Shown: positions 13,874-41,961 of the stretch, piece after piece | Layout: each line of letters opens with the position of its first letter | Numbering within the stretch: position 1 is the stretch's first letter | Made by a program: the position numbers and the translations under genes | Notes under the pieces: model-generated | Told to the model about the DNA's origin: nothing | The model's input: the letters and a program-made list of their open reading frames with translations, nothing else | Databases searched by the model: none | DNA from: Candidatus Woesearchaeota archaeon | Lineage (GTDB): Archaea > Nanobdellota > Nanobdellia > Woesearchaeales > JABGXB01 | Assembly: GCA_018675975.1 (NCBI GenBank) | Contig: JABGXB010000003.1 | Coordinates: forward strand, 267,821-331,820 | DNA length: 64,000 nt | Direction: 5' to 3'

Positions 13874-15754
13874 TTAATTAAATATTTTAGAAACTTCTTT
13901 TGAAACAATAGTTGGATTAACTTTACCTTTTAATTTGCCCATTAAAATACCCATTAATTTTCCACGATTAATATTAGAATCAGATTTCATTTCAAAATCA
14001 ATAATTTCTTTTATTTTTTTAATTGCTTCACCATCATCTAATAATTTATATTTTTTAGAAATAATTTCAATAGTAGAATTAGTATTTAAAAATTCTAAAA
14101 TAATATCATAAATACAAGCGTGATCAATTTTATTTTCATTCCACAACTCAAAAATAAATCTAGCCATATCTAAATCCCAATTAAACTCTAAATTATCTTT
14201 ACGTCTTAATTCTTTTGGAATGGATAAAAACTTTTCTGCAATACTTGATGATTTTAAATTTTTATTATCTTTAATTAATTCTTCAAAAATATTATTAGAA
14301 TAATCTTTAGAAATATCACGCGCAAGATCTTCACCTAAACCTAAAGATTTATATCGGTTAATTTTATCATCAATTAATTCAGGTAATTCTATATTACTAA
14401 TATCAGGAATAATACTTTTAACATCAGTTTCAGGATACATTCGAGAAGATCCTGGAATCGGTCTCATATAAACACTTGTAAACGTTTTCACTACAGCTCT
14501 AACTTCATCAATTACCCCAATTTTAATTGCCATTCTTGCACGTCTATATGCAGCAAATAAAGCTAAAATAACTTTTTCTTTTTTATCTGCACAAATTATG
14601 AATGCATCTTTTTCTTTACAATTTAATTCATCAATAATATGATTAACTTGAAAATTTTCAATTCCGTATTTTGGCAATTCATCACTATGAAAAATACCAC
14701 CAACACCAGATTCAACTTTTGCATAATCAGATAATTCAGAACCCAATCTACGATTATCTTGAATTTCACATCCTAAAAAACCTTTAAAACAATTTAATTT
14801 AATACCATAAACAACTCCATTATTATCTAAAGCAGAATTAATTACCTTGCTATCAGAGTTCTTAAAAATATCAGATAAATCAAAAATTTCTACATCTTCA
14901 AAATCATTTATATTATCATATTCAACTAATTCTTGATGACCATTAAACATTTTACTTAATTCATGTTTAATTTTATTAAGATTTATTTGTCTTAGAATTT
15001 CACTATCTATAATAATTTGTAAATTTTTTAAATCTTGAGCACCCTTTAACTCAACACGATTTCCACCATGAATTGAAATATTTAAATCTTGTCTAATTGT
15101 ACCAAGACCTCTTTTAACTTTATTCGTACTTCTAAGTAGCATTCCAATTTGGCTTGCAATTTGTTTTGCATGTTCAGGTGTTTTAATAGAAGCATCAGTT
15201 GAAATTTCAATTAAAGGAATACCTTGTCTATCTAATCTATAATCAATAGAATTATTATTTTTTGCTATATCCTTACAAGCATCTTCTTCTAATAAAATTG
15301 AATCAATATTTACATTTCCTATTTCATTTTTTAAAATACCATCACTTGCAATTAAACTAGTTCTTTGAAAACCACTAGTAACTGAACCATTAGCAATTAT
15401 TTTTCTCATTACTTCAATTCGTTTTACAATTTTTGCATTAACAAGTTTTGAAAAAACTAAAACAACATTTAATGCATCTTTATTTAAATCATGAGGAGGC
15501 TCCTCATCTAATTCCACAGAACAAGTTGTATCATAATAACCCTGATAATTATAAATTAAATTTTTTTGCATTTCAACTTTAGCTGCCACATCCATATCCC
15601 CTGACTCACCAGAACTAGCATGCATTTTTCTAGTTATTATAAAATCAGGCTCATCATCTCGCAATATAGAAGGACAATTACAAAACAATTTATTAGTATT
15701 TAATTGCTGATGAATTTCAATACCAATTTTTAAATTTAATTTATTATAATCCAT
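13874..15754 (-). CDS. gatE: Glu-tRNA(Gln) amidotransferase subunit E
   Basis: 626 aa; N-terminal LKIGIEIHQQLNTNKLFCNCPS characteristic of archaeal GatE; follows gatD. Confidence 0.85.
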   Translation of the reverse strand: MDYNKLNLKIGIEIHQQLNTNKLFCNCPSILRDDEPDFIITRKMHASSGESGDMDVAAKVEMQKNLIYNYQGYYDTTCSVELDEEPPHDLNKDALNVVLVFSKLVNAKIVKRIEVMRKIIANGSVTSGFQRTSLIASDGILKNEIGNVNIDSILLEEDACKDIAKNNNSIDYRLDRQGIPLIEISTDASIKTPEHAKQIASQIGMLLRSTNKVKRGLGTIRQDLNISIHGGNRVELKGAQDLKNLQIIIDSEILRQINLNKIKHELSKMFNGHQELVEYDNINDFEDVEIFDLSDIFKNSDSKVINSALDNNGVVYGIKLNCFKGFLGCEIQDNRRLGSELSDYAKVESGVGGIFHSDELPKYGIENFQVNHIIDELNCKEKDAFIICADKKEKVILALFAAYRRARMAIKIGVIDEVRAVVKTFTSVYMRPIPGSSRMYPETDVKSIIPDISNIELPELIDDKINRYKSLGLGEDLARDISKDYSNNIFEELIKDNKNLKSSSIAEKFLSIPKELRRKDNLEFNWDLDMARFIFELWNENKIDHACIYDIILEFLNTNSTIEIISKKYKLLDDGEAIKKIKEIIDFEMKSDSNINRGKLMGILMGKLKGKVNPTIVSKEVSKIFN

Positions 15755-15759
15755 TTTAA

Positions 15760-17058
15760 TTATCTTAAAAAAGAATCCTTATTTATATGATTATCAATTT
15801 CACCCTTTAAATTTTTATTATATAATTCAAGAATTTGACTCAAATCTATATTTTTACTCAATAAATAAGCAATTTTACAAAAAGCAGTTTCTATAGTTGT
15901 ATCCATTAAATGTCCAGCAATATTTAATTCGCTTAATTTTCTACCAGTAGAATAAACATTTTGATTAATTCTTCCATAAATAGTTTGTGCTGTAAAAATA
16001 ATTGGAATTTTTTGACTCATATTTTTTATCCAATCATAAAATTTATTATGATTTATTGTAAAGTTATCAATTTCATTAATTGGCATATTCCCAATACCAA
16101 CAGAACATATAATTAATGCATCAAAATTATTATACATTTCAAATTCATCTATATGCATATTGGGATGAATATATAAGATTCCAATTTTTAAATTAGAATT
16201 TAATTTAATTAATTTATTTTCAATTTTCTTATAATAATTATATTTTTCAAATTCATATGTTTTTGAAATTTTATCTTCAATCACATTTACACTTGCAAGT
16301 TCAATAGAATTAATTTGTCGAAACGCACCTCTAAAAGTTGTATGCATTTTTCTTACATTAACACCTTTTAAAATGTGACAAATATTATCTGATTCATTTT
16401 TATGCATACAAATAAAGATTCCTGATTTATCATATGTAGATAAAAATTTACTTGCTGCAGCCATATTAATATAAGCATCACTACTTCCCCTATCACTACT
16501 TCTTTGAGCACCAACAATTACAACTGGAATAGTTAAATCCTCAAACATAAAAGAAAGTGCCGCACTAGTATAATGTAAAGTATCCGTACCATGAGTAATT
16601 ATAACACCATCATAATGATTTTCAACTGCTAACTTTATTTCTTCTGCAATTAAATTATAATGATCAAATCTCATATCTTCAGACCACATTGCAGCTAATA
16701 ATTTAGTATCAAAATTACAATATTTATGCATTAAGCTAAACATATTTAATAATTCTTCAGGAGTTATTTTACTAATTACACCACCTGTTGCATAATCAAC
16801 CTTTGAAGCAATCGTTCCACCAGTATGTAATATTAAAATATTTTTCTTATCAGACGAATGAGAAAATAAATTTTCAATTTCTTTTGAATTATTTTGACTA
16901 TTTTTTTTTATAATTTCAAGTTTAGAACTTGCAGGTAAAGAAATATTATAACCTGAAGATAATTTTAAAACAATAAAATCTCCATCTTGTTTAATAAAAA
17001 TACCTTCATATAATTTACCATCATTTTCAATTTGTATAAAATCTTTAAATTCTGCCAT
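15760..17058 (-). CDS. gatD: Glu-tRNA(Gln) amidotransferase subunit D (asparaginase-like)
   Basis: 432 aa; asparaginase signatures ILHTGGTIAS and ITHGTDTL; N-terminal GatD-specific extension. Confidence 0.85.
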   Translation of the reverse strand: MAEFKDFIQIENDGKLYEGIFIKQDGDFIVLKLSSGYNISLPASSKLEIIKKNSQNNSKEIENLFSHSSDKKNILILHTGGTIASKVDYATGGVISKITPEELLNMFSLMHKYCNFDTKLLAAMWSEDMRFDHYNLIAEEIKLAVENHYDGVIITHGTDTLHYTSAALSFMFEDLTIPVVIVGAQRSSDRGSSDAYINMAAASKFLSTYDKSGIFICMHKNESDNICHILKGVNVRKMHTTFRGAFRQINSIELASVNVIEDKISKTYEFEKYNYYKKIENKLIKLNSNLKIGILYIHPNMHIDEFEMYNNFDALIICSVGIGNMPINEIDNFTINHNKFYDWIKNMSQKIPIIFTAQTIYGRINQNVYSTGRKLSELNIAGHLMDTTIETAFCKIAYLLSKNIDLSQILELYNKNLKGEIDNHINKDSFLR

Positions 17059-19402: not shown

Positions 19403-21691
19403 TTATCCAAAATAACTTTTAATATTATTTTTTATTTCTCTTGCATTAGAAAATTTAAATTTATCTTTAATTTCCTCATATGCTTTTTCAATTTCATCAT
19501 TACTACTAGGTCCAACCCTTTTTAATGCATCATTAAAATCATCCATTGTTACAGATTCCGAATCCATATTTTTTCTCAATGCACTAATTCCAGACTCCCT
19601 ACATAAACTTTGTAAATCTGCACCAACATAATATTCTGTTTCTGTTGCTATAAATTCTAAATCTACATCTTCAGATAATTTCATATTTTTTGTATGAACT
19701 TTTAAAATATTTAATCTTGCTTCATAATCAGGCGTCCCAACTAAAATAATTCTATCAAATCTTCCTGGACGTAATAAACCATTATCAATTATATCTGGTC
19801 TATTAGTTGCAGCAATAATCACAACATCATGTAATTCTTCTAAACCATCCATTTCAGTAAGTAAAGTATTTACAATTCTTTCTGTAACTTTTGAATCTGT
19901 TGTATTTGTTCTTTTTGGTGCAATTGCATCAATTTCATCAAAAAATAAAATACTCGGACTTGTTTCACGTGCCTTATTAAATAATTTTTTAATAGTTTTT
20001 TCAGACTCACCAACCCATTTACTAATTACATCACTACCTTTAACTAAAATAAAATTAGCTTTTGATTCATTAGCAACTGCTTTAGCAAGTAATGTTTTTC
20101 CAGTACCTGGAGATCCATAAAGTAAAATACCTCTTGGTGGATTAATTCCAATTCGTGAAAAACTTTTTGGATGTTTTAATGGCCATTCAACTGCTTCTTT
20201 CAAATCGTTTTTAACATCATTTAAACCACCAATATTTTCCCAACTAACTTTTGGAACTTCAATAAATATTTCTCTAAGTGCACTAGGTCTAACAACTTTT
20301 AATGCATCTTTTAAATCATCTTCACTAACAACTAATTTTTTTAATACACTTTCAGAAATTGGTTCATCTTCATTTAATTTAATTTCAGGAAGTAAACGCC
20401 TCAAAACAATCATTGCTGATTCTTTTACTAAACTACTCAAATCAGCACCAGTAAAACCATAAGTTTGATCTGCAATTGTTTTTAATATATCAGGATTTGT
20501 AAGTGGCATATTTCTTGTATGAATTTTTAAAATATGTAATCTACTATTTGCATTTGGTGCACCTATATGAATTTCACGATCAAATCTTCCAGGCCGTCTC
20601 AATGCAGGATCTAAAGAATTAACTAAATTACTTGCAGCAACTACAATAACTTTGCCTCTTTTATTTAATCCATCCATTAATGTTAATAATTGAGCTACTA
20701 CTCTTCTTTCAACTTCACCTTTACTTTCTTCTCTTTTAGTTGCAATTGCATCAATTTCATCAATAAAAATAATACTTGGGGCATTTTTTTCTGCTTCTTC
20801 AAAAATCCCTCTTAGATTTTTTTCACTTTCCCCATAAAACTTTGACATTATTTCTGGACCATTAATTAAATAAAAACTAGCATTTGTTTCAGCTGCAACA
20901 GCTCTTGCAAGTAATGTTTTACCAGTTCCAGGAGGACCATGTAATAAAACTGCTTTTGGTGCTTCAATACCTAAATGATCAAATAATTCAGGATGTTTTA
21001 GAGGAACTTCAACCATTTCTCTAATTTTTTTAACTTCATCTTCTAAGCCACCAATATCTTCATAACTAATATCATGAATATGTGAACTATCTTCAACTTC
21101 ATCAACACCTTGTGATTGAAATTCTATTATAGTATCATTTGTAATTATAACTGGCTTATTATTAGGTTTTGTAGATATAATAAAATATTTCATATCTGAA
21201 TGAAATAAAAATTTATTTTGCATATCATCAATCAATCTATAAATTTCATTATAATGTGGACTACCTGATAATGTTTTTCTTCTTCTTTTACTCCCACCAA
21301 TACTTACAACATCACCTTTGTAAATTGGTCTACCCAAAAGACCTTGTTTAAATAAATTTGCGGGAGCATCAATAATAATATTTTTTCTTGCAGGGGCAAT
21401 TACAACTTTTTCAGCAGATTTAACATCAGCCTTTCTAACTTTTACACTTTCACCTAAACTAGTTCTTGCATTACGCCTTACAATACCATCAATTCTAATT
21501 ACAGGCCTACCTATGTCCCCAGGATATGCCCTATCAACAATAGCAACTGTTTTTCTCGTACCCTCAATTTCAACAATATCGCCAACTTCAATATCAATTT
21601 GTTTCATTAAATTATAATCTATTCTAACTATACCCTTATTAACATCATCTTCAATTGATGCAATTACATCCAACTGTATTTCTTTTGACAT
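19403..21691 (-). CDS. CDC48/VCP-like AAA+ ATPase (two AAA domains)
   Basis: 762 aa; N-domain plus two Walker A sites GPPGTGKT / GSPGTGKT, Walker B DEIDA, second-region-of-homology motifs. Confidence 0.9.
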
Positions 21692-29273: not shown

Positions 29274-31034
29274 ATGAATTATCAAATGAAGAATTTTTCC
29301 ACTGAGCAAACTGAATTATTAAGATCATTTCTTTTTACAGCTCCACATAGTAATGTAAGTTTAATTTATCCACAACAATTAGTTGCAGGTGAAGAACTAG
29401 CCCCATTAATTTCAGCATATTCAAGAAGCAATCAACCACTTCAAGAAAGAGTATTAGAATTTGTTGATAAACAAAAAAATACAGAAGCTAAAGCACTATT
29501 ACCACATTTACCAGAATTAATGAAAACATTTAGAAATGAAGATGGTTCATTAAAAATTAGTAAAAAAACAAGAAACTTTTCTAAAAAATGGGTTCTTGCG
29601 CACGGTCACAGTTCAATAAAAGAAATGAATTCTATTTTTGGATGTGTTGAAGGAATTTCAGACATTTGTGGAAAATTAATTACTGGACATCCTTTAGCCC
29701 ACCCTCAAGTTAAGTCATCAAGATATATTTCTTTTGAAGATACATTAGATATGGCATTAGTAGATCCAGACATTCAAAACTTATCTTGTTCAAATGAAAT
29801 TATAGAACATTTAAAAGAATTAAATACAGAATATCTTAATGCAACTAAATATTTAGCAAATGCAGTATTTAAATCTGAAGAAACTGATCAAATAAGAGAA
29901 TTTTTAACTCGAGACTCAGTATTAGATATGCATGGTGAAAAATTATTTAATCGTGCTAAAAAAAAAGATCCAGAATTAGTAAAAACTGACACATTAATAG
30001 AAGAATTAAAATCACAGGCTTATGAAAATATAAATAGTGATGAGTATGTAATGGGACAACTTGAAAAATTTGTTCTTGATAGAAGTAGAGTATATTTACC
30101 TGGTTCAACTAGAACAAGTTTAGGTTTTATGATTGATGGTAGAACATGTGAAGAAATCATTACAACATTATTAACTAGTCCTTTAATAGAAGCCCAAAGT
30201 TTTGGTAATCAAATTTGGACTGAAACAAAAAAAATCTCACCTGTTTTATTAGGAGATCAATCCCATATTAAAAAAGATGAATGGAAATATGAGTTAGATA
30301 CGGACTTTAGAAAAGAATTAGCTACACGATTAGATTATATTGTCATGCACTCTGAACAAAAATTTGGAAGAGTTTATTCACCAAGCTTTGTACATTCAAG
30401 AGGAGAAGATACAAGATCTGCAGTTATGGCTGCATATAAATATAGTGATTTTTCTTTTGATGATTTAATAGAACAATTAAAAGAAAAAGATGTTAAATGG
30501 ATTTTAGATAGAACTCACGAACATAGAAATAAATTTGATCAATTACATGAAAGTGGTGGTCATGGTGGTATGCTTACTGAAATGACTATGCCATATCATG
30601 GTTATAGAGATATGTTTAGACATAGAAAAGGAGCAAGATCTAATCAATTATATACAACAGTTCACGGTTTTGAAAATGTTGAAATTTTTAATCATTTTGA
30701 TATAAATTCAAGATATGAATTATTAATGAATAAAAATAATGAATTATTTAGAAAAGCAGCAAAAGAAAATCCCCATGCTGCACAAAAAGTTGTTGCCTTT
30801 GGTCAATTATGTAGAGCAGCACACAGTTGGTCATTAGAACAAATTGGATATATTGCAAGAATAAGAGCGAATATTGAAACCGGAAATATTAGTTATGTAA
30901 AAACTGTTCATCAAATTGTAGATGGTGTAAAAAGATTATCACCACAATTAGCATCAAAAATAAATTATAATCAAGAAATGTTTCCAGAACATATTTGGAA
31001 AGAAGGTTATGATTTATTTAGAAGTAAAAAATAA
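29274..31034 (+). CDS. large hypothetical protein, His-rich C-terminal region (first gene of candidate novel cassette)
   Basis: 586 aa; no family recognised; His-rich stretch HEHRNKFDQLHESGGHGGMLTEMTMPYHGYRDMFRHRKGARS; 33-nt gap to the next gene. Confidence 0.6.
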   Translation: MNYQMKNFSTEQTELLRSFLFTAPHSNVSLIYPQQLVAGEELAPLISAYSRSNQPLQERVLEFVDKQKNTEAKALLPHLPELMKTFRNEDGSLKISKKTRNFSKKWVLAHGHSSIKEMNSIFGCVEGISDICGKLITGHPLAHPQVKSSRYISFEDTLDMALVDPDIQNLSCSNEIIEHLKELNTEYLNATKYLANAVFKSEETDQIREFLTRDSVLDMHGEKLFNRAKKKDPELVKTDTLIEELKSQAYENINSDEYVMGQLEKFVLDRSRVYLPGSTRTSLGFMIDGRTCEEIITTLLTSPLIEAQSFGNQIWTETKKISPVLLGDQSHIKKDEWKYELDTDFRKELATRLDYIVMHSEQKFGRVYSPSFVHSRGEDTRSAVMAAYKYSDFSFDDLIEQLKEKDVKWILDRTHEHRNKFDQLHESGGHGGMLTEMTMPYHGYRDMFRHRKGARSNQLYTTVHGFENVEIFNHFDINSRYELLMNKNNELFRKAAKENPHAAQKVVAFGQLCRAAHSWSLEQIGYIARIRANIETGNISYVKTVHQIVDGVKRLSPQLASKINYNQEMFPEHIWKEGYDLFRSKK

Positions 31035-31066
31035 AAAAAAAAGAATAATAAAAAAGAGGTTAGTAA

Positions 31067-31696
31067 ATGAATTTAAGTATATATAGTGAGATTCCAATGC
31101 ATCAAGTTATTGAAGAAGTTAGAAAATCCCCTATGTTAAAATCTGATACTCAATTTCCTTACAAAAATGCAAATATTAGTTTACGTAATGTCGGTATGGG
31201 TGAAATTAATCCAACAAGTTTATATGCATTAAAAGCTAATTTGGATTTTCAAAAAAACTTAAGAGAATATATATTAAATAGATTTGGTTTTGATACATTA
31301 AGATTAAGTTCTGGTCTTATATTAGAAAATAAAGATGGGGAGCGTCAAACATTAATACCTCCTATAGTTGAAGTATCAGAAAGAGAAGTTAAGTTCATTC
31401 CACAAAAAGATGAATTATCATATGAAAATTCATATAAAATAAAAATACCGTGTTTACTTGATGGTATTCATCGCGCACTATGTGCAAAAGAATTAGGTAT
31501 AGATTTAAATGTAATTTTTATTTATGATTCAGATACCAATTATCCTGTTTATGCACATCCAAATGAATGGGATTTAGTTAAAATTTGTGATAGTATACCA
31601 AAAGAAAAAAGTCAAAAAAAAATGTATTTAAGAGATGATCATTCTAGTTTGTATAAATCATTTGCACACTTAGGTTCAAGTGGTCTTAGAAAATGA
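31067..31696 (+). CDS. ParB/Srx-fold (ParB-like nuclease domain, DGxHR motif) protein
   Basis: 209 aa; IPCLLDGIHRALCAKELGIDLNVIFI matches the ParB/sulfiredoxin/DndB-type DGxHR..A...G core; stop overlaps the next start by 4 nt. Confidence 0.6.
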   Translation: MNLSIYSEIPMHQVIEEVRKSPMLKSDTQFPYKNANISLRNVGMGEINPTSLYALKANLDFQKNLREYILNRFGFDTLRLSSGLILENKDGERQTLIPPIVEVSEREVKFIPQKDELSYENSYKIKIPCLLDGIHRALCAKELGIDLNVIFIYDSDTNYPVYAHPNEWDLVKICDSIPKEKSQKKMYLRDDHSSLYKSFAHLGSSGLRK

Positions 31697-32850
31697 GTAA
31701 TTTAGTTTTAGTTGAAGGAATAAGTGGAGCTGGTAAAAGTACAGCAATTAATTTTATTCAATCTTATCTTTCAACATTCAATATTCAAAGTCACACATTT
31801 AATGAACCCGGTCATATGCGAGATGAAATTAAAAAATATCATAATAGAGAAGACAGAGATCTTCAATTAGAATTTGATCATTATGTTTTATCCAGAAAAG
31901 TTGATTTACATCATAAAGTAATGCCAACTATAAAAAATCACCCAAAGGATACTATCCTCATTGATCGAAGTTGGATTTCTACAATGGTTTATCAACAAAC
32001 AGAACAATGTCCAATGATAAATATTCGTGATTATCATTCCTTTTATCCCAAACACAATTTAGCATTACTCTTAATTTGTGATCCTGAAACTGCATATCAA
32101 AGAATTTTAAAAAGAAAAGAAACTCAAGGAATAGAATTAAGTACATCTGAAAATCCAAAAAGAATTGCTGAACTTAGAAAAAGTTATATTGAAGCATTTG
32201 ATTTAGTAGATTATTCTGTAATTATTAATACTGATGGAAGTGAAAATGCAGTTAATTGTATTTTAAAATCTTATATGAATAAATTATTAGGAATTAAAGA
32301 AAAAAAAATTGTTTTTTTAGATAAAGATGGTACTTTAGTTGACAATTCTAAATATCCAGAAGTAATTCCAACGGATGAAATTCTTTTTGCAGATACATTA
32401 GAAGGATTATATAAATTAAAAAGTGCAGGATATGAATTTCATATGATTTCTTCTCAACCATGGGTTGCTAAAGGTCAATTAAGTTTAGATCAAACAAATG
32501 AAATTTTTGAAAGTGTTATAGAACAATATAAAAAATATGGAATTGAATTTACTGGATATGGTTTTTGTGAACATCATAGAAGTGATAATTGTCCAGATAA
32601 AAAACCAAATACAGGTTTATTAGAACAAATAGCAACTCAACAAAATATTGATATTTCTCAAAGCTTTTTTATAGGAGATATGGAATCGGATATTGAATGC
32701 GGTTATAATTTTGGATTACAAACTGGATTAGTAACTAAATATTCAAATGCAAAAACAATAGATAATTTATCTCAACAAAGATTTAAAAGAACTCCAAATT
32801 ATACTGCAATTAATTTGAATGAAATTGCAAATCAAATAATTGAAAATTAA
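31693..32850 (+). CDS. fusion protein: thymidylate-kinase-like P-loop kinase (N) + GmhB/PNKP-type HAD-IIIA phosphatase (C)
   Basis: 385 aa; P-loop LVEGISGAGKST and DRSWISTMVYQQ (compare Tmk EGxDGAGKTT / DRYxxSSxAYQ); C-terminal HAD motifs VFLDKDGTLV, MISSQPWVAKG, DKKPNTGLL, IGDMESDIECGYNFG with a Cys/His cluster CEHHRSDNCPDKKP. Confidence 0.7.
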   Translation: MSNLVLVEGISGAGKSTAINFIQSYLSTFNIQSHTFNEPGHMRDEIKKYHNREDRDLQLEFDHYVLSRKVDLHHKVMPTIKNHPKDTILIDRSWISTMVYQQTEQCPMINIRDYHSFYPKHNLALLLICDPETAYQRILKRKETQGIELSTSENPKRIAELRKSYIEAFDLVDYSVIINTDGSENAVNCILKSYMNKLLGIKEKKIVFLDKDGTLVDNSKYPEVIPTDEILFADTLEGLYKLKSAGYEFHMISSQPWVAKGQLSLDQTNEIFESVIEQYKKYGIEFTGYGFCEHHRSDNCPDKKPNTGLLEQIATQQNIDISQSFFIGDMESDIECGYNFGLQTGLVTKYSNAKTIDNLSQQRFKRTPNYTAINLNEIANQIIEN

Positions 32851-33025
32851 TATTTGTTAATTATATTAATTAAAAAAACTAAATTGTTTTTTTTTTGTAA
32901 AAAGAGTTCGAACGTTAATTCCTTACATTTGAATTTAATGAATATATAAAAACAAAAAAACAATATAATTCACTAAGCAGATAAAACAAAACATTATAAA
33001 GCAAATGTATCTATAAAAATAATAC

Positions 33026-33073
33026 ACACTAGGAATAGTGTCACAGCAAATATTAATAACACAATATACGGGG
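33026..33073. promoter_or_regulatory. two putative NrdR boxes upstream of nrdR-nrdJ
   Basis: Box 1 acactaggaatagtgt (33026..33041) is a 16-bp palindrome with acac...gtgt ends like the NrdR-box consensus; box 2 acacaatatacgg (about 33059..33071) is a half-palindrome; the starts are 33 bp apart. Confidence 0.5.
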
Positions 33074-33154
33074 AGTTAATAAATTTTTAAACCAGAAAAA
33101 AATACTAAATTAGCTTTAGCTCTGTAAAATAAAAAACAAATAAAAAATAAAAAA

Positions 33155-33604
33155 ATGAAATGCCCACATTGTAATTCAGATGATTTGAAAGTAAATGAAA
33201 CAAGAGAAACAGAATCAAATAGTTTTAGAAGAAGAAGAGAATGCAATAATTGTGAAGAAAGATTTACTACATATGAAAAAATTCAAGAATTATTAATTAG
33301 TGTAAAAAAAGAAAGTGGAAAATTAGAAAATTATACTAAAGAAAAATTAGAAAAAAGTTTTTTGATTGCTTGTAATAAAAGACCAATAACAAGAATTCAA
33401 ATATTAAAAATTATTGAAAACATTGAAAATAAAATAAGAAATAATTTTAAAAATGAAATTTCATCTAAGACATTAGGTGAATATGTAATGGAAGAATTAA
33501 AAATTTTAGATCCAATATCATATATTAGATATGCTTCAGTATACAAAGATTTTGATGATTTAGATAAATTTAATCAAGAATTAATATTATTAAAGGTGAA
33601 TTGA
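33155..33604 (+). CDS. nrdR: transcriptional repressor NrdR (zinc ribbon + ATP-cone)
   Basis: 149 aa; MKCPHCNSDDLKVNETRE...RRRRECNNCEERFTTYE is the NrdR zinc-ribbon signature; directly abuts nrdJ. Confidence 0.85.
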   Translation: MKCPHCNSDDLKVNETRETESNSFRRRRECNNCEERFTTYEKIQELLISVKKESGKLENYTKEKLEKSFLIACNKRPITRIQILKIIENIENKIRNNFKNEISSKTLGEYVMEELKILDPISYIRYASVYKDFDDLDKFNQELILLKVN

Positions 33605-36600
33605 ATGGAACAAAGTATTGAAACAAAACGAACTGGTATAAAAGTTAAAAAAGTTTTTTGTAGTGATAATATAAGCCCATTTGAAACTGTTGAATTTGAA
33701 AACAGATCAAGTGTGATAAAAAATAGAGATGGTTCTATATTATTTGAAATAAATAATATTCATGCTCCAAAAAAATGGTCGCAAGTTGCCGTAGATATAA
33801 TGGCACAAAAATATTTTAGAAAAAGTGGAGTTCCACAATATGATGAAAATCAAAATGAAATTAAAGATGAATTTTCAAATATAATTACAGGTTCAGAAAC
33901 AGATATTACTCAACCAATAAAAAGATTAACTGGATGTTGGAGACATTGGGGAGAAAAATATAATTATTTTGATACGCAACAAGATGCAATTAATTTTGAA
34001 CAAGAAATACAATATATGTTATTACATCAAATCGCTGCACCAAATAGTCCACAATGGTTTAATACGGGACTTAAATGGGCATATAATATTTCTGGAAGTG
34101 CACAAGGACATTATTATGCTGAACATGAAACAGGTGAAATTAAATTATCTGAGGATGCATATTCAAGACCTCAACCGCATGCATGTGCGGATTATTATAC
34201 ACAAGTGTATACTGATAAGGGTACAATGTATATTGGAGATATAGTTGAAAATAATTTAACTAATATAAAAGTATTTGATGGAGAAAAATATGTAAAAGTT
34301 CTTGCAATCAAAAACAATGGAAAAAAAGAAGTGTTTAAAATTCAATTAAAAAATGGAAATTATATTAAATTAACTCAAGATCATTTAGTGCTATCATCAC
34401 AAAAAAGAAAAAAAAATGGTGGAAATTATAACTGGAATTATGTAAAAGATGTAAAATTAGGTCACAAATTACAACAACCATTAATTCTAGATATTAAAGA
34501 AAAAAATGTATTTAGTGATGATTTAGCAAAAGCAAGATTAGCCGGTTGGATAGTTGGAGACGGATCAGTTGGAATTTATGAAAATGTAATGAGATTGGAA
34601 ATTATTTCTATTAAAGAAGAAGAATTTGAATCAATAATAAATGATATTCAAGAAGTATTTGGACAAGAAGTTAATTTTTGGATTAGTAAATTTAAAACAA
34701 AAAACGAAAATTTAGATGGTAAAAGAATTCATTTAGCAGGTAAAAAAATACATAAATTAATTGAAGACTATGATTTACTAAAATCTTCATTTAATGCAGA
34801 AGTACCTCAAAAAATAATTAATGGGTCACCACAAGAAAAAAGAGAATTTTTAAAAGCCTTATTTCAAGCAGATGGTTGTGTCAGAATTAGAAAAGATGAA
34901 AATAGAAATTCAGGAGATGTGTGTTTAACTACAATTTCAGAAAATCTTTCATTTGGAGTTTTACAATTATTAAATTCATTAGGTATTTATTGTAGAATTA
35001 ATAAATATAGTGATAAAAGAGAAAATCGAAAAGATGTTAATCAAGTTATAGTATCTTATGGTAGTGCAAGAGAACAATTTCAAGAACAAATTTCTTTTAT
35101 ATGTTCTCAAAAAACCGAAAAATTAGAATTATTAAATAAAATTATAACAAAATCAAAAACACTTCCATTAATAAGAGAAGAAACAATTATTTCAATTGAA
35201 TCTGAAGGCATTAAAGATGTTTATGATATTCAAACAGAATCTTCAAAATTTCTTGGAAATGGAATTGTAATACATAATTGTTTTATTCAATCAGTTAAAG
35301 ATGATTTAGTTAATCAAGGTGGAATATTTGACCTTTGTACAAGAGAGGCAAGAATATTTAAATATGGTTCTGGAACTGGTTCAAATTTTTCACAATTAAG
35401 AGGTCAGTCTGAAAAATTATCAGGTGGTGGAAGATCTTCAGGTATGATGTCATTTTTAAAAATATTTGATGTGGCAGCTGGAGCAATTAAATCAGGTGGT
35501 ACAACAAGACGTGCAGCAAAAATGGTTTGTCTTGATTTGGATCATCCAGAAATTATTGAATTTATTGATTGGAAAGCAAATGAAGAAAAAAAAGTTGCTA
35601 ATTTAATTACTGGTTCAAAAAATTCAAAATATCATTTACAAAAAATATTAAAAGAAGCAAGTTCAAATTCAAATATAGAAAAAAATCCAAAATTAAAATC
35701 AGCAATTAAAGAAGCTATTGAACAAAATATTTCTTTAAATTATATTGATAGAGTTTTAAAACTTGCAAATCAAGGAATAACTGAATTTGAAACTCCCGAG
35801 TTTGATAATCATTTTGAAGGTGAAGCATATTCTACAGTTAGTGGACAAAATTCAAATAATTCAATAAGAATACCAAATTCATTTTATGAAGCTGTTCATA
35901 AAGACTTAGATTGGAATTTAAAAAATAGAACTGATGGAAAAATTTCAAAAACTGTAAGAGCAAAATGGCTTTATGATAAAATTGGACAAGCTGCTTGGGC
36001 TTGTGCAGATCCTGGTGTTCAATTTGATACGACAATTAATGAATGGCATACATGTCCAAAAGATGGAAGAATTAATGCAAGTAATCCTTGTTCTGAATAT
36101 ATGTTTTTAGATGATACTGCATGTAATTTAGCTAGTATTAATTTAATTCATTTTATTAATGATAGTGGACATTTTAATGAAGAAAAATTTGCTCATGCAT
36201 GTGAACTTATGACAATTGTTTTGGAAATTTCAGTTACTATGGCTCAATTTCCAAGTGATGAAATTGCAAAAAGAAGTTGGGAATATAGAACATTAGGTTT
36301 AGGTTTTGCAAATTTAGGGACATTACTCATGGTTAAAGGAATTTCTTATGATAGTGATGAAGCTAGAAGTATAGCTGGAGGAATTAGTGCCATAATGTGT
36401 GGAACTGCTTATGAAACATCTGCTAAACTCGCAAAACATCTAGGACCTTTTAACAGATATGAACATAATAAAGATGACATGTTAAGAGTTATTAGAAATC
36501 ATAGACGTGCTGCATATAATGTTTCAAATGAAGAGTATGAAAAATTAGAAATTACTCCAGTTGGCATTGATGAAAATTTATGTCCAAATAATATTTTACA

Positions 36601-38146
36601 AAAAGCTAGAAATTCATGGGATAATGCACTTGAACTTGGACAAGAATATGGATTTAGAAATGCACAAGTAACTGTTATTGCACCAACCGGAACTATTGGA
36701 CTTTTAATGGATTGTGATACTACAGGAGTTGAGCCAGACTTTGCAATTGTTAAATATAAAAAACTTGCAGGCGGTGGTTATTTTAAAATTGTAAATCATT
36801 CAGTTATTAAAGCATTGAGAACTTTAGGTTATGAAAAAGATCAAATTATTGATATTAAAAAATATTGTATAGGTCATCAAACATTAGTGGGTTGTCCAAC
36901 CATAAATCATAAAATTTTAAAAGATAAAGGATTTGATGAAGAAAAATTAGAACTTATTGAAAAACAATTAGAAACTGCATTTGATTTGAGTTTTGTTATG
37001 AATAAAAATATTTTAAGTGAAGAATTTTTAAAAAAATTAGGATTTAGTGATGAACAATTAAATTCTGAAATGTTTGATTTACTAGAAGAATTAAAATTTA
37101 CAAAAGAACAAGTTGATATTGCAAATGAATATGTTTTTGGAACAATGACAGTTGAAGATGCTCCATACTTATTAGAAGAACATTATTCAGTTTTTGATTG
37201 TGCAAATAAATGTGGAAAAAAAGGTAATAGATATATTGACACTTATGGACATATTAATATGATGGCAGCAGTTCAACCTTTTATTTCTGGTGCAATTAGT
37301 AAAACAATTAATATGGATTCAGAAGTTAGTGTTAAAGATATTTTAGATGCTTATGAAGCTAGTTGGAAATTAATGCTTAAAGCAAATGCATTATATAGAG
37401 ATGGATGTAAATTAAGTCAACCATTAAATACTGCTGTTTTTGAAAGTGAATACAATTTAAATTTATCTGAAGAAGATATTGATGAAACAGTTGATTCAGC
37501 AGCAATTCAACAACAAATTCAAACAATGAAAGCAAATCAGTTGCCGAGAAAAAGAGGTGGTTTTGTTCAAGAAGCAACTGTTGCAGGTCACAAAATATAT
37601 TTAAGAACTGGTGAATATAATGACGGAAAATTAGGTGAAATTTTTATTGACATGTATAAGGAAGGTGCTGCCTTTAAAGCACTAATAAATTGTTTTGCAG
37701 TTGCAATAAGTAAATCTCTACAATTTGGTGTTCCTTTAGAAGAATTTGTTGAACAGTTTACATTTACTAGATTTGAACCGGCAGGTTTAGTAACTGGACA
37801 TGAATATATTAAAAATTCTACGTCAATATTAGATTATGTATTTCGTGTTCTAGGCTATGAATATTTAGGTAGAGATGATTTAATTCATGTAAAACCTAAA
37901 AGAAAACCACTAGACATTATAGAACATGAAGATGATCCAAGAGATAAACATAAAACACTAGATAGTTTTTCTAATAGAAAAAATGTAGAAGAGACTAGAA
38001 ACGAAATGCTTTTTAAAAAAATTAATACTGCCAAATCAAGAGGATATACTGGAGAAGCATGTGGTTCTTGTGGTAGTATGAGAGTAAAAAGAAATGGAAG
38101 TTGTACACTTTGTGAAGATTGTGGTTCTACTAGTGGTTGCAGTTAG
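33605..38146 (+). CDS. nrdJ: ribonucleotide reductase, class II-like (adenosylcobalamin-dependent NrdJ type), containing one intein
   Basis: 1513-aa precursor; N-terminal [21 protein letters not shown] (class II WSQ..A.DI...KYF motif), active-site [22 protein letters not shown]-terminal Cys-rich zinc-ribbon tail; no nrdB nearby. Confidence 0.85.
34184..35278 (+). mobile_element. intein (365 aa) with LAGLIDADG homing endonuclease domain inserted in nrdJ
   Basis: Starts with Cys (PQPHA|CADYYTQVY), ends IVIHN followed by the +1 Cys (|CFIQSV); two LAGLIDADG blocks [11 protein letters not shown] and [11 protein letters not shown]; extein junction restores a contiguous PHACFIQS. Confidence 0.8.
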
Positions 38147-38248
38147 AAATTAATTTTTTTATTAAAATTTTATATTTAATTAATTATTAATTTTTTTATA
38201 TATTTTATAATATAAAAATTTATAAAAAAAAAATGATACGATAAATAT

Positions 38249-38572
38249 ATGTCAAAATACTTATCTATAGAAATGATATTTGATTCAATAAATAAAACAT
38301 ATAAAATGCGTTCTGAAGTAAAAGATGAAATGATAGAAGAATTCATTTCAGATTTCATGAGATCTGGTATAGTTGAATCTACACCTAACGGAGATGTAAT
38401 TGAAAGAAACGAATACAAAGTAATTTTACAATTACATTTTGGACCTGTTGACGACTATAGAATTCAAACAAATACAAATAATAGAGATTTAACTATGGGA
38501 ATAATATGTGGTGCATTAGGATACTTAAAGAGTAACCCAAAAATTGATACTAAATTATATAAGTTAAATTAA
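38249..38572 (+). CDS. hypothetical small protein
   Basis: 107 aa ORF with protein-like composition. Confidence 0.4.
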   Translation: MSKYLSIEMIFDSINKTYKMRSEVKDEMIEEFISDFMRSGIVESTPNGDVIERNEYKVILQLHFGPVDDYRIQTNTNNRDLTMGIICGALGYLKSNPKIDTKLYKLN

Positions 38573-38590
38573 TAAAATAATATCAAAAAA

Positions 38591-39103
38591 TTAATTCAAT
38601 TTATTACATAAATAATTAAATTCAGTACAGAAAAGTTCCAATCTTTCAATTATTTGATCATTAATAATTTCACTACCACTAATATCATTATATGTTGAAT
38701 AAACAAATCTTGGTAAAATAATACATCTAAAATCTAACATTAAGCTATTTACAAATGATAATGGTGCCATATAAGAACTTGAACCACCTGCAGAACATAA
38801 AATGCCAATTAATTTTTCACTTAAAGATTTTCCTGCAAGTTCAATTACATTTTTTGCTGAGCTATTAATATTATAATTATAAATTGGAAGTGCAAAAATC
38901 ACCCCATCTGCATTTTCAATTTGTTTTTTTAATTCAATTACATTAGTAAATTCATAACATTTCCCTGCATCACACATTGGCAAATCAAAATGAAATAAAT
39001 CGATAAATTCAATATCACAATCTAATCGAGATTTAACATATTTTGCAAGAATTCTACTTTTACTATCTTTATTTAAGCTTGTAGATATAATTAAAACTTT
39101 CAT
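38591..39103 (-). CDS. flavodoxin-like NAD(P)H-dependent FMN reductase family protein
   Basis: 170 aa; MKVLIISTSLNKDSKSRILAKYV ... GVIFALPIYNYNINSSAKNVIELAG typical of NADPH-dependent FMN reductase/ArsH-like flavoproteins. Confidence 0.6.
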   Translation of the reverse strand: MKVLIISTSLNKDSKSRILAKYVKSRLDCDIEFIDLFHFDLPMCDAGKCYEFTNVIELKKQIENADGVIFALPIYNYNINSSAKNVIELAGKSLSEKLIGILCSAGGSSSYMAPLSFVNSLMLDFRCIILPRFVYSTYNDISGSEIINDQIIERLELFCTEFNYLCNKLN

Positions 39104-39132
39104 AAAATTAGGATATAAATGAAATTTAAAAA

Positions 39133-39915
39133 TTATTTGTTTTTGTAAATTAATTCTTTCATTACTTTTTGAAATTCAATAGCATTTGCTTTGATATTTT
39201 CATAATCATGCCCTGAAATATTATCAATTTCGCCTTTTTCTAATTTCTTTGTAATATCATATAAATGAGAAAAAAAATGTACATGTTTTCCATCAAGTTT
39301 ATTCAAATTTACAAATCTGACTTGTAATAAATCAGGAATTAATTGTGGAAGTCCTGGCATTTCACCAATTTTCATTAAAGCTGCCTGAGATGAATCATAA
39401 CAAGCCCAATATAAATCTACAACTGCATTTATAATTTTTATTGAACTATTATGCATTGCTGCACAACTTTTTTTATAAAATTCGTTTATCATTTCTTCAG
39501 TTCCTTTTATTTTACCATCTTCTAAAAGATATTGTAAAGTCTCAAACATACCTAAATCATAAACTGGATAACCTGTTCTTAATATATTTACTAAAATTGG
39601 ATGACCTTTTTTTGCATAATCCCAAAAATTTGATAATTTTAAGGTTTGTAAATGAATTTTAAAATTAAGTTTTCTCAATATATTTGCAACTACAACCCTA
39701 TATGTTTGTATAAATTCCGCAGTTAATGCATATTTAACATCATCAACAACAATTAAAATATCTATATCACTTTGAGAATCATGATTAATACTCCAATTAT
39801 TTTCAGATATTTTTTTAACATCATATTTTGAATAAGATCCAAAAACTACAATTGTTTTAATAAAATTCTCAAGTTCAGGCAATATTTCTTTAGAAAACGA
39901 AATAGCATAATCCAC
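39133..39915 (-). CDS. Pol-beta superfamily nucleotidyltransferase with C-terminal helical (HEPN-like) domain
   Basis: 260 aa; minimal NTase motif VVFGSYSKYDV...SDIDILIVVDD followed by an alpha-helical C-terminal half. Confidence 0.5.
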   Translation of the reverse strand: MDYAISFSKEILPELENFIKTIVVFGSYSKYDVKKISENNWSINHDSQSDIDILIVVDDVKYALTAEFIQTYRVVVANILRKLNFKIHLQTLKLSNFWDYAKKGHPILVNILRTGYPVYDLGMFETLQYLLEDGKIKGTEEMINEFYKKSCAAMHNSSIKIINAVVDLYWACYDSSQAALMKIGEMPGLPQLIPDLLQVRFVNLNKLDGKHVHFFSHLYDITKKLEKGEIDNISGHDYENIKANAIEFQKVMKELIYKNK

Positions 39916-40023
39916 TTGCTTATCCGCATAAAATTTTTTATTAGGATGAGAATTTATATCGTATTTGAACTTAATTGGTACACCTCTGATTAAAAAATAG
40001 AATTGTGATTTATAAAATTAAGC

Positions 40024-41961
40024 TTAATTGTTATATTTATTAAAAATAAAAATACCAGAACCTAAAATAAATATACTAAAAAAGATAAAAATATACCAAA
40101 TTATATTAACCATTTTACTATTTGTACTATTTTGAATTTCATTTACAATAATATTGCTATTTAATGAATCTTCATTTGAATTGATATTAATATTATTTAA
40201 TTCTAAATTTAAATTTAATAATTTTTTTTCCATTTCATTTCTTTTTGATTCCATTTCTAAATTAATTTTATCAATCTTATTTTTTAATTCATTATTCATA
40301 TTATTAACATCCTTTGAATTATCAACAATATTTGAATTATCATTTAAGCATTTAATTACATTAATTGAAATTGATTTTTTCAATAATTCATTATTATTTT
40401 TATTAAATGCTTGTAAAATAATATCACGTTCCCCTAATTTATTATTAATATTATAATTAAAACTAAAAGATTGATCATCTCCTTCATCTAAACTAAATTC
40501 TTTATTTAATTCAATATCATCATCAGTTAATTGTAAAGTTAAGTCTTCAATATCTCTACTACCAACATTTACTAAATCTCCATTTATTTTTATACCATTA
40601 AATGAACATAAATCTATTTCTTTTGTATAAAATAAATTATCAATAATTAATTCTTCTCTATCTTTTTTTATTTTTACTCTGATAGTAAAATTTGCTTCAT
40701 GAAAATAACTCTCATTATCCAATACACTAGCATATAAATTGAAATTTGATCTTTCTTCTTTATTATCAAATGGTATTATTGATTCATCAAAATCAATATC
40801 AATAGTTTCACAATCATTTTTTACAATATCTAATTCTTCTTCATCAATATCAATTCTAAACATTTCACCATATAATCTTATATTTTCTAAATCTGTATTT
40901 TTTACATTACAAATTTTAACTTCAGCTGATATTTGATCCCCTACTTTAAAATCATCATCATAGGCTCTACCTGAATTATCAAAACGTTCTTTTTTATCAT
41001 TTCTATGTAATTTTACAAATTCAAATTCAAGTGGATTTTTAGGATTTACATTAATTTTTCCATCAATTGTAATTACTTCATTTAAAACATTTGTTAATTC
41101 TAATTGAAAACTATTTTCACCATAATTTAATTGAGGATTAAAAATAATATCATTAACTTCCAGTCCATTAAATTTCCATTTATAATTTACAATAAAATTA
41201 CTATTTGTTAAATCTAAAAATTGTTCATATAAGTTAAATGAACTTAAATCCTCTTCATTTAAATTAATAGTAATATTATTATTTAATGATAAAAAATCAC
41301 TATGTGTTTTATTTGTTACAATAGTATATATTTTCCCATTAGGAATATTATTACTATCATTTTTTTGAAATAAAACATGCAAATAAAGATTCTTATTTTG
41401 ATAATTAATTAAATCACCATCATTTAAAATAATTGTAAGTTTTTTATCACCGCCTTGATAAAAAGGATAAACATTCCAATCATCTTTATTTAAACCAAAT
41501 TTTTCATAAGTAAAATCATCATTTGAATTTAAAATTAAAGCATTCCATAAAAAATTCATTCCACTATTAATATATCTACTAATCAATTCTGAATATATTA
41601 TTTCATTTGAATCATTAGGTCTATCAATTACATTTATAGTTTCTTGTTTAATTTTATATTGACCTAAACTATTTTTTAAAATAAATGTAATATTATGAAT
41701 TCCACTATTATGATATACATGATTTATATTATTTAAATTATAATGTTTTAATTCATTTGTACCAAAATCAACTATTGAATAATCTAAATTAAAACCGCTT
41801 TGAGTTAAAGTATTTAATGTAAAATTAAAAGGCTCATTTACATAAATAGTTGTAGGTAATTCCACAGTATAATCCATACCATTTTCAAATACACCATTTA
41901 CAGAAATTAAACTAATTGATATAAAAAATATTAAAACTAATAATTTATTTATTATTTTCAT
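40024..41961 (-). CDS. large secreted surface (glyco)protein, C-terminal coiled coil + TM anchor; paralog of the upstream gene
   Basis: 645 aa; signal peptide, many N-x-S/T sequons, region homologous to 41973..44039 (DNSGRAYDDDFKVGDQISAEVKICN... vs RNSGERYSKDIKPGQDFSVEIKVCN...), C-terminal TM IIWYIFIFFSIFILGSGIFIF. Confidence 0.6.
   Translation of the reverse strand: MKIINKLLVLIFFISISLISVNGVFENGMDYTVELPTTIYVNEPFNFTLNTLTQSGFNLDYSIVDFGTNELKHYNLNNINHVYHNSGIHNITFILKNSLGQYKIKQETINVIDRPNDSNEIIYSELISRYINSGMNFLWNALILNSNDDFTYEKFGLNKDDWNVYPFYQGGDKKLTIILNDGDLINYQNKNLYLHVLFQKNDSNNIPNGKIYTIVTNKTHSDFLSLNNNITINLNEEDLSSFNLYEQFLDLTNSNFIVNYKWKFNGLEVNDIIFNPQLNYGENSFQLELTNVLNEVITIDGKINVNPKNPLEFEFVKLHRNDKKERFDNSGRAYDDDFKVGDQISAEVKICNVKNTDLENIRLYGEMFRIDIDEEELDIVKNDCETIDIDFDESIIPFDNKEERSNFNLYASVLDNESYFHEANFTIRVKIKKDREELIIDNLFYTKEIDLCSFNGIKINGDLVNVGSRDIEDLTLQLTDDDIELNKEFSLDEGDDQSFSFNYNINNKLGERDIILQAFNKNNNELLKKSISINVIKCLNDNSNIVDNSKDVNNMNNELKNKIDKINLEMESKRNEMEKKLLNLNLELNNININSNEDSLNSNIIVNEIQNSTNSKMVNIIWYIFIFFSIFILGSGIFIFNKYNN

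Follow-up and report, generated by a model that had tools for sequence, protein, structure and literature searches.

Described NrdR systems and the woesearchaeal locus

The closest described system is the nrdRJ operon of Streptomyces coelicolor, the prototype of an nrdR-nrdJ unit controlled by its own pair of NrdR boxes (Borovok/Grinberg; cryo-electron microscopy in Rozman Grinberg et al., 2022, PMC9110341). In haloarchaea, a bacterial-type NrdR is tied to archaeal ribonucleotide reductase (RNR) operons of the nrdR-nrdAB and nrdR-nrdBA types, an association attributed to horizontal transfer from bacteria; the passages on haloarchaeal NrdR in that source do not describe operators (Lundin et al., 2010, PMC3019208). 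NrdR has been counted in 22% of archaeal genomes (PMC13584703), and a 2025 preprint repeats that it is absent from archaea. Here we describe an nrdR-nrdJ pair preceded by two NrdR boxes in a 64-kb stretch (hereafter the window) of contig JABGXB010000003.1 from Candidatus Woesearchaeota. It is best read as a self-contained, autoregulated operon of a Woesearchaeota-type (DPANN) archaeon, in which a bacterial NrdR system would act on an archaeal promoter and repress it by occluding the start site, a reading to which we assign a probability of about 0.75. An earlier examination of the letters of this DNA (the sequence-only reading) had proposed an NrdR repressor with paired operators in an archaeal nrdR-nrdJ operon; its observation is confirmed, and its interpretation supported, by the evidence given below. 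It had also noted that NrdR is predominantly bacterial; the occurrence of NrdR in archaea is already documented by the 22% figure (PMC13584703) and by the haloarchaeal operons (PMC3019208).

The window locus shares with its S. coelicolor counterpart the gene order (nrdR first, class II nrdJ second), a repressor composed of a Zn-ribbon and an ATP-cone and, as predicted for the window, autoregulation through two 16-bp, partially palindromic boxes at the transcription start, offset from each other by about three helical turns. The differences lie in the promoter, which appears to be of the TATA/TFB type rather than sigma70-dependent, in a linker of 17 bp instead of 15 bp, in the GA centre of box 1, in the substitution of E15 for D15 in the repressor, and in the presence of an intein in NrdJ; the window, moreover, is known from sequence alone. 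Compared with the haloarchaeal operons as presented in PMC3019208, which concern class I RNRs in Halobacteria, the window combines a class II enzyme with a DPANN host. The features of the locus are collected in Table 1.

Table 1. Features of the nrdR-nrdJ locus and of its surroundings, in window coordinates.
Feature	Position	Strand	Description
Run of ten T	32887..32896	+	37 nt 3′ of the stop codon of the upstream Tmk::HAD gene; read from sequence
Intergenic region upstream of nrdR-nrdJ			304 bp; holds both boxes
Predicted TATA box of nrdR-nrdJ, ATTATAAA	32993..33000	+	TTATAW at 32994, the only one within 200 nt 5′ of nrdR
NrdR box 1, ACACTAGGAATAGTGT	33026..33041	+	Starts 129 bp 5′ of the nrdR ATG (33155); 11.8 bits
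Linker between boxes	33042..33058	+	17 bp, counted from sequence
NrdR box 2, ACACAATATACGGGGA	33059..33074	+	Start 33 bp 3′ of the box 1 start and 96 bp 5′ of the ATG; 12.5 bits
Rest of predicted 5′ leader	33075..33154	+	Leader of about 132 nt in total from the predicted start
nrdR	33155..33604	+	149 aa; Zn-ribbon and ATP-cone
AGGTGA, Shine-Dalgarno-like, for nrdJ	33594..33599	+	Within the 3′ end of nrdR; read from sequence
nrdJ	33605..38146	+	Class II (B12-dependent) ribonucleotide reductase; 1513 aa
LAGLIDADG intein in NrdJ	34184-35272 (aa 194-556)		363 aa; between RPQPHA and CFIQ
DPANN-typical context genes	13874-17058, 19403-21691, 40024-41961, 60376-61878	- (all four)	GatE + GatD, CDC48 ATPase, PACE-CTERM-type S-layer match, archaeal AMP/thymidine phosphorylase

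The repressor and reductase genes

The first gene of the pair is nrdR. It is identified as such because its product passes the cut-off of the TIGR00244 equivalog model (149.2 bits against 124.65), possesses both the Zn-ribbon (PF22811, E = 6.4e-16) and the ATP-cone (PF03477, E = 5.1e-16), and matches the solved NrdR structures of E. coli (E = 2e-30) and S. coelicolor (7P37, E = 1e-22) along its entire length. The cysteine pairs of the Zn-ribbon, C3-x2-C6 and C30-x2-C33, fall in columns that are invariant in the alignment. Within the ATP-cone, residues K52, E58, K64 and Y130 align with K53, E59, K65 and the SVY tyrosine of E. coli NrdR, and are the equivalents of the nucleotide-contacting K50, E56, K62 and Y128 of S. 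coelicolor NrdR, for which the roles of nucleotide-site and DNA-contact residues have been described (PMC9110341). In S. coelicolor numbering, the DNA contacts comprise the RRRR motif, R12, R37 and the specificity pair D15/R17. In the window NrdR, the DNA-contact residues RRRR 25-28, R17 and R36 are kept, R12 is replaced by K12 and D15 by E15. Besides the window, E15 is found in 17 of the 120 best database matches, and the named sources of these are all Woesearchaeota or Nanoarchaeota. The protein is 45-52% identical to other DPANN NrdRs and equally so to bacterial ones, such as those of Peptoniphilus and Megamonas. A near-identical protein in public metagenome-assembled genomes (MAGs) is already annotated as NrdR, and a partial NrdR in NCBI that is 100% identical to that of the window carries the label Candidatus Woesearchaeota.

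The sequence-only reading had nrdR directly abutting a class II RNR gene, and indeed the stop codon of nrdR (TGA, 33602-33604) adjoins the ATG of nrdJ at 33605, so that the two genes form a continuous operon. The AGGTGA element within the end of nrdR would support translation of nrdJ from a bicistronic mRNA. NrdJ, the product of the only reductase gene seen in the window, contains PF08471 (E = 1.9e-32), the PF02867 RNR barrel (E = 4e-127), TSCPD, Intein_splicing and LAGLIDADG_3 domains, and scores 564 bits against TIGR02504 (cut-off 400). Its best NCBIfam model is PRK07562, with a score (1720 bits) that falls slightly below the cut-off of 1737 because the intein interrupts the match. The C-extein shows 60-65% identity to proteins from Woesearchaeota, Micrarchaeota and Diapherotrites, and 61-62% to those from Bacteroidota, Ignavibacteria and Chlorobi. 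By its domains, NrdJ is the long form (PF08471 N-terminal domain plus TSCPD) that is common to DPANN archaea and to bacteria of the Bacteroidota/Ignavibacteria group. The description of this enzyme as archaeal-looking is therefore withdrawn: with PRK07562 as its best model, and a similar identity to DPANN and to Bacteroidota/Ignavibacteria proteins, it is not distinctively archaeal. Among its close homologues in both groups, many contain an intein (about 1500 aa) and many do not (about 1150 aa).

A tandem operator upstream of nrdR

Two sites had been placed some 90 to 130 bp upstream of nrdR, and their starts were measured at 96 and 129 bp from the ATG. The first had been described as a 16-bp palindrome; its position is correct, but the palindrome is restricted to two arms of 6 bp, ACACTA/TAGTGT, and does not extend to the GGAA between them. 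The second, ACACAATATACGG, had been called a half-site; it does start at 33059, 33 bp downstream of the first, but is a full 16-bp box.

The consensus NrdR box has six highly conserved positions, C4, A6, A8, T9, T11 and G13. Of these, C4 and G13 are critical; A6 and T11 "seem critical", having been tested in double or symmetric mutants alone, and A8 and T9 are dispensable by mutagenesis provided that at least 63% of positions 5-12 are A/T (PMC13584703). Box 1 keeps C4, A6, T11 and G13 and has GA (G8-A9) rather than AT as its central dinucleotide. Box 2 keeps five of the six highly conserved positions (C4, A6, A8, T9 and G13), with T11 replaced by C and a GGGG-type right arm. C4, A6 and G13 are present in both boxes, and positions 5-12 are 75% A/T in each. 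The strict regular expression given in the literature, C.[AT].A[AT].[AT].G (PMC12051234), is matched by neither box. GGGG-type right arms are found in bona fide sites, namely box 1 of S. coelicolor nrdAB (ACACAACATCTGGGGG; PMC13584703) and the site of locus L149 (GCACTATATATGGGGG). Spacers of 14-17 bp bind NrdR in vitro and those of 15-17 bp repress in vivo (PMC12051234), and the 17-bp spacer of the window falls within the published range of 14-17 bp (the other class being 24-27 bp). Set against these rules, the operator is atypical at one position per box and lies at the edge of the spacer range, yet appears to remain inside the demonstrated tolerance.

The boxes were scored with a log-odds matrix built from the published consensus (PMC13584703) on both strands of the 64 kb. 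Box 1 fits ACACWANNNNTWGTGT without a mismatch, as no other site in the window does, and the two boxes rank first (box 2) and third among all single sites. As a pair they reach 24.3 bits, compared with 12.5 bits for the next independent pair, which lies inside an open reading frame (ORF). A score of 24.3 bits was attained in one of 300 first-order Markov simulations of 64 kb (mean best 14.05, standard deviation 2.25), a count taken anywhere in the 64 kb and without requiring a position upstream of an nrd gene. No other NrdR pair in the window with a spacer of 14-17 or 24-27 bp rose above simulation noise (best 13.0 bits, all inside ORFs). The sequence-only reading had proposed looking for the palindrome ahead of other nucleotide-metabolism genes; within the window no box precedes any of these, the thyX-like cassette and the AMP phosphorylase gene included.

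Related archaeal and bacterial loci

Eleven independent archaeal nrdR loci, collected protein by protein, were compared with the window. In L004, from a Methanobacteriota MAG, nrdR is followed by two untyped ORFs of 703 and 226 aa; in L013 and L015, from Woesearchaeota and Nanoarchaeota, it is followed by a long ORF taken as nrdJ; L021, L022, L023 and L145-L148 have the order nrdR-nrdJ; and in L024 nrdR is convergent with trx-nrdJ. A scan of a genome collection with a single NrdR protein returned mostly bacterial loci and three archaeal ones. In each of the 11 archaeal loci (5-12 kb long), no box pair scores higher than the one immediately 5′ of nrdR, which has a linker of 15-16 bp, and the expected enrichment of boxes upstream of nrd genes in relatives accordingly holds. 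The box pair of the window is statistically and comparatively real, and the tandem architecture first proposed for it is sustained by two full boxes, by their rank as the best pair in the window, and by the same placement in archaeal relatives.

Seven nrdR-nrdJ relatives (L021, L022, L023 and L145-L148) come from Woesearchaeota and Nanoarchaeia MAGs. They share with the window an ACACTA-N4-TAGTGT box 1 at the equivalent place with a G/C-rich centre, an upstream TATA-like octamer, and E15 in the repressor. Protein identity to the window is about 50%, and the window differs in a TATA box that is about 6 nt further away, a linker that is 1-2 bp longer, and the GGGG-type arm of box 2. The flanks in these seven loci have diverged, with box 1 and the octamer retained. 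The octamer (TTTATAAA in six loci and TATATAAA in L147) lies 17-21 nt 5′ of box 1, and the transcription start is predicted inside the left arm of box 1, at about position 4. Box 2 is separated from the ATG by 4 to 162 nt, depending on the locus. As the spacing between octamer and box 1 is nearly fixed and that between box 2 and the ATG is variable, the operator is positioned by the promoter and not by the start codon.

Positions 7-10 of box 1 in the window and these seven relatives vary in sequence but are rich in G and C (24 of 32 bases), the GC content of the genomes being 23-33%; box 2 has A/T-rich centres. G/C-rich box 1 centres also occur in bacterial sites, from GC-richer contigs. Constraints on the initially transcribed sequence, tuning of DNA bending, and the E15 variant are possibilities to account for the box 1 centre.

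L013 and L015 likewise have nrdR-nrdJ with tandem boxes, 15 bp apart, but here (866-912 in L013 and 5954-6000 in L015) the linker itself contains TTTATAAA, box 2 ends at the ATG, and the repressor has D15. With the TATA box in the linker, transcription is predicted to begin at the start codon itself, which would give a leaderless mRNA. NrdR would therefore sandwich the TATA box in these two loci, whereas in the window it would cover the start site and the leader. The geometry of L013 and L015 parallels that of the bacterial-like L149, in which TATAAT (a -10 element) is found in the linker.

A metagenome scan for the DNA pattern alone, made up of box 1 and the core of box 2, gave at least 80 loci, mostly bacterial. 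An RNR-like gene was present downstream on the same strand in about 40 of the 80 listed loci, as detected with NrdR, NrdJ and the two untyped L004 ORFs as probes. A single additional archaeal locus was among the matches listed, L069, which is identical to L021 in box pair, linker and flanks. On this evidence, the box pattern is a generic NrdR operator that marks RNR promoters.

The same comparisons bear on the idea that the operator is a decaying relic of a laterally acquired nrdRJ unit, with boxes that are still recognisable but exert no meaningful regulation. The degenerate right arm of box 2, in which T11 is missing, would fit such decay, as would the linker of 17 bp (15-16 bp in relatives) and the different spacing between TATA box and box 1. 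Nevertheless, nrdR is intact with all its key residues, the boxes are still the first and third single sites in 64 kb, and a 17-bp spacer binds well in vitro and represses in vivo in bacteria (PMC12051234). Neutral decay in a genome of 23% GC would also be expected to strike G and C first, but C4 and G13 are kept in both boxes. A relic is accordingly considered improbable.

Predicted promoter and leader

Of the 59 ORFs of the window, 14 have the first T of a TTATAW at -28/-29 relative to the start codon, where about 0.5 would be expected. This implies that the promoters of the window are TATA-driven and its mRNAs mostly leaderless. Operon-internal genes and a few others have a GGTG-type Shine-Dalgarno sequence instead. 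For nrdR-nrdJ, the predicted TATA box combined with this calibrated spacing suggests that transcription begins at about 33022-33023, with box 1 following 3-4 nt later; the boxes would thus overlap the promoter and start region of the RNR operon. A semi-conserved AYATATTCT motif (caatataattcac, 32961-32973), which is outside the NrdR box consensus, is found 5′ of the predicted TATA box; the motif also occurs about 18 nt 5′ of the TATA element in L021, L022, L145, L147 and L148. Oligo-T runs are established archaeal terminators, and the run of ten T upstream is probably the terminator of the preceding cassette, in which case nrdR-nrdJ would be a separate transcription unit.

Alternatively, the boxes could be genuine and the active promoter could lie downstream of them, near the nrdR ATG, giving a leaderless mRNA. 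NrdR bound at about -81 to -129 would then act indirectly, by DNA bending or by occlusion of an upstream element, or would repress a second, upstream promoter. Most genes of the window do look leaderless, nrdR has no Shine-Dalgarno sequence, as leaderless translation would have it, and the 20-35 nt 5′ of its ATG are very A/T-rich (GTAAAATAAAAA). However, nrdR lacks a TTATAW at -28/-29, the sole one within 200 nt being that at 32994. In relatives the TATA-like octamer keeps its 17-21 nt from box 1 as the interval from box 2 to the ATG varies between 4 and 162 nt, and every studied NrdR operator overlaps the core promoter or the transcription start (PMC9110341). A downstream promoter is therefore unlikely, although it is the least implausible of the alternatives considered here.

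The predicted leader was searched for RNA elements. A permissive Rfam search of 32840-33170 found no family at E<=1, and hence no known riboswitch or leader RNA, cobalamin riboswitches included. The predicted RNA fold of 33020-33160 is slightly better than that of shuffled sequences (z = -2.07), and consists of a small hairpin at box 1 plus weak pairing of the right arm of box 2 with 33110-33127. A leader element, TAGCTTTAGCTCTGTAAAA (33111-33129), resembles TAGCGTTAGCTATGTAAAA in the L021 leader (about 5875-5895) by alignment, and ATTAGCTTTA is also present in the L023 linker. The match between TAGCTTTAGCTCTGTAAAA and TAGCGTTAGCTATGTAAAA extends over 17 of 20 positions, with a chance of about 0.01 by a rough hand estimate for A/T-rich leaders.

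The hairpin raises the question of whether the sites are protein operators at all, since box 1 could be a chance inverted repeat or a leader RNA hairpin with a 6-bp stem and a GGAA loop. The fold of the leader (z = -2.07) agrees with this, and the G/C-rich box 1 centres of the relatives can be read as tetraloops. Chance is opposed by the pair statistics (24.3 bits, 1 of 300 simulations). As for an RNA structure, box 2 has no hairpin potential and yet is conserved 15-17 bp from box 1, with its C4/A6/A8/T9/G13 pattern, in every locus; the predicted start lies shortly before or within box 1, so that the relatives would have a shortened stem; Rfam gave no match; and the same pattern, searched as DNA, retrieves bacterial sites in front of RNR genes. 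Such an origin of the sites is very improbable, and the two boxes are treated below as NrdR operators.

Proposed regulation

Control of the operon may be envisaged as follows. Judging from the biochemistry of bacterial NrdR, the ATP-cone would sense the ratio of dATP to ATP (or ADP). When loaded with ATP, the repressor would form oligomers that do not bind DNA, as do those of S. coelicolor and E. coli (PMC9110341). Accumulation of dATP would give rise to a dATP/ATP (or dATP/ADP) tetramer, two Zn-ribbon pairs of which would bind box 1 and box 2 on the same face of the DNA and impose a sharp kink. NrdR so bound would cover about +4 to +52 relative to the predicted transcript start. TBP and TFB might still bind, with recruitment of RNA polymerase or promoter escape being blocked, and nrdJ and nrdR would be repressed together. 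The identity of the protein, the box pair, the continuity of the operon and the archaeal promoter signals of the genome are shown; the start site, nucleotide-dependent binding and repression are inferred.

Several points weigh against this scheme. T11 is absent from box 2, the linker, at 17 bp, is borderline with respect to the optimal range, and the specificity residue D15 (S. coelicolor numbering) is E15 in the window NrdR. The start site is a prediction from TATA spacing alone, and the TATA box is 25 nt from box 1, that is, about 6 nt further than the 19-20 nt seen in most relatives. A leader of about 132 nt without a Shine-Dalgarno sequence is unusual in a mostly leaderless genome. The box scan covered 64 kb of the genome. 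To our knowledge, mechanistic work on NrdR has so far been entirely bacterial.

Gene neighbourhood and host

The archaeal nature of the host, assumed in the sequence-only reading, is borne out by marker genes in the window (GatD/GatE, a CDC48-type ATPase and an archaeal AMP phosphorylase) and by its TATA-type, leaderless promoters. The window has a GC content of about 23%.

Directly 5′ of nrdR, a cassette of three genes (29274-32850) encodes a ThyX-like protein, a ParB-CE domain protein and a fusion of thymidylate kinase to a HAD-IIIA phosphatase. The ThyX-like protein (586 aa) has a weak Thy1 match, with an RHR-type motif appearing again near aa 450. The cassette has its own promoter, with a TATA box and a Shine-Dalgarno sequence, and is devoid of NrdR boxes. 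In searches of the cassette against PHROGs and PADLOC, the thymidylate-kinase half alone was matched. It may represent an unusual thymidylate or modified-nucleotide pathway.

A metagenomic contig, L150 (ENA ERZ4200949 NODE_191, 50.7 kb), is 99.76% identical to window positions 32469-41146, with an identical upstream region. At this level of identity it is the same organism as the window, and hence is without comparative value. A single 20-nt gap near an intein-extein junction splits its nrdJ into two called genes, and is probably an assembly or strain indel.

Origin and significance

It had been suggested that the module was either acquired laterally or conserved in this lineage. In keeping with this, nrdR-nrdJ recurs in Woesearchaeota and Nanoarchaeia MAGs, and the window NrdR is equally similar (about 45-52%) to bacterial and archaeal proteins. 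The module resembles a unit of bacterial type that has become widespread in Woesearchaeota and Nanoarchaeia. A neighbour-joining tree of about 110 NrdR sequences was too poorly resolved to place the window among the L021-type NrdRs or to name a donor. The tree groups the window with P0043 and P0079, and the contig of P0043 (L149) looks bacterial (FtsA/FtsZ, nrdDG).

Both the occurrence of NrdR in archaea and the nrdRJ operon are already known, and the new element is a modest one, the operator on archaeal TATA promoters in two geometries. In the literature searched, NrdR and DPANN were not reported together, and NrdR and "TATA box" co-occurred, to go by titles, only in unrelated subjects; the placement of the operator on archaeal promoters thus appears to be undescribed there. 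Tentatively, and at somewhat less than even odds, DPANN archaea may have refitted a bacterial operator to TATA/TFB promoters in two ways. In the first, represented by the window and about seven relatives, the TATA box would be followed after 17-25 nt (mostly 19-20) by box 1 at the start site, then by box 2 and an unusually long leader lacking a Shine-Dalgarno sequence, in genomes whose mRNAs are otherwise leaderless. The second, found in L013 and L015, looks like a direct re-use of the bacterial arrangement with the -10 element in the linker.

The value of the locus for annotation is routine, as public MAGs already label the protein NrdR. Current work on NrdR treats it as a "strictly prokaryotic" master switch of dNTP supply. 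The window and its relatives offer concrete archaeal operators, with predicted starts, on which a bacterial Zn-ribbon/ATP-cone repressor could be studied together with TBP, TFB and RNA polymerase. If the operator was indeed refitted in these two ways, NrdR would offer a clear-cut natural example of a single repressor that blocks both bacterial and archaeal RNA polymerases, and the G/C-rich centre of box 1, E15 and the conserved leader element at 33111-33129 might reflect altered recognition particular to the lineage or a further level of regulation. Genome-reduced DPANN archaea would, as these loci suggest, keep transcriptional control over the only reductase visible in them.

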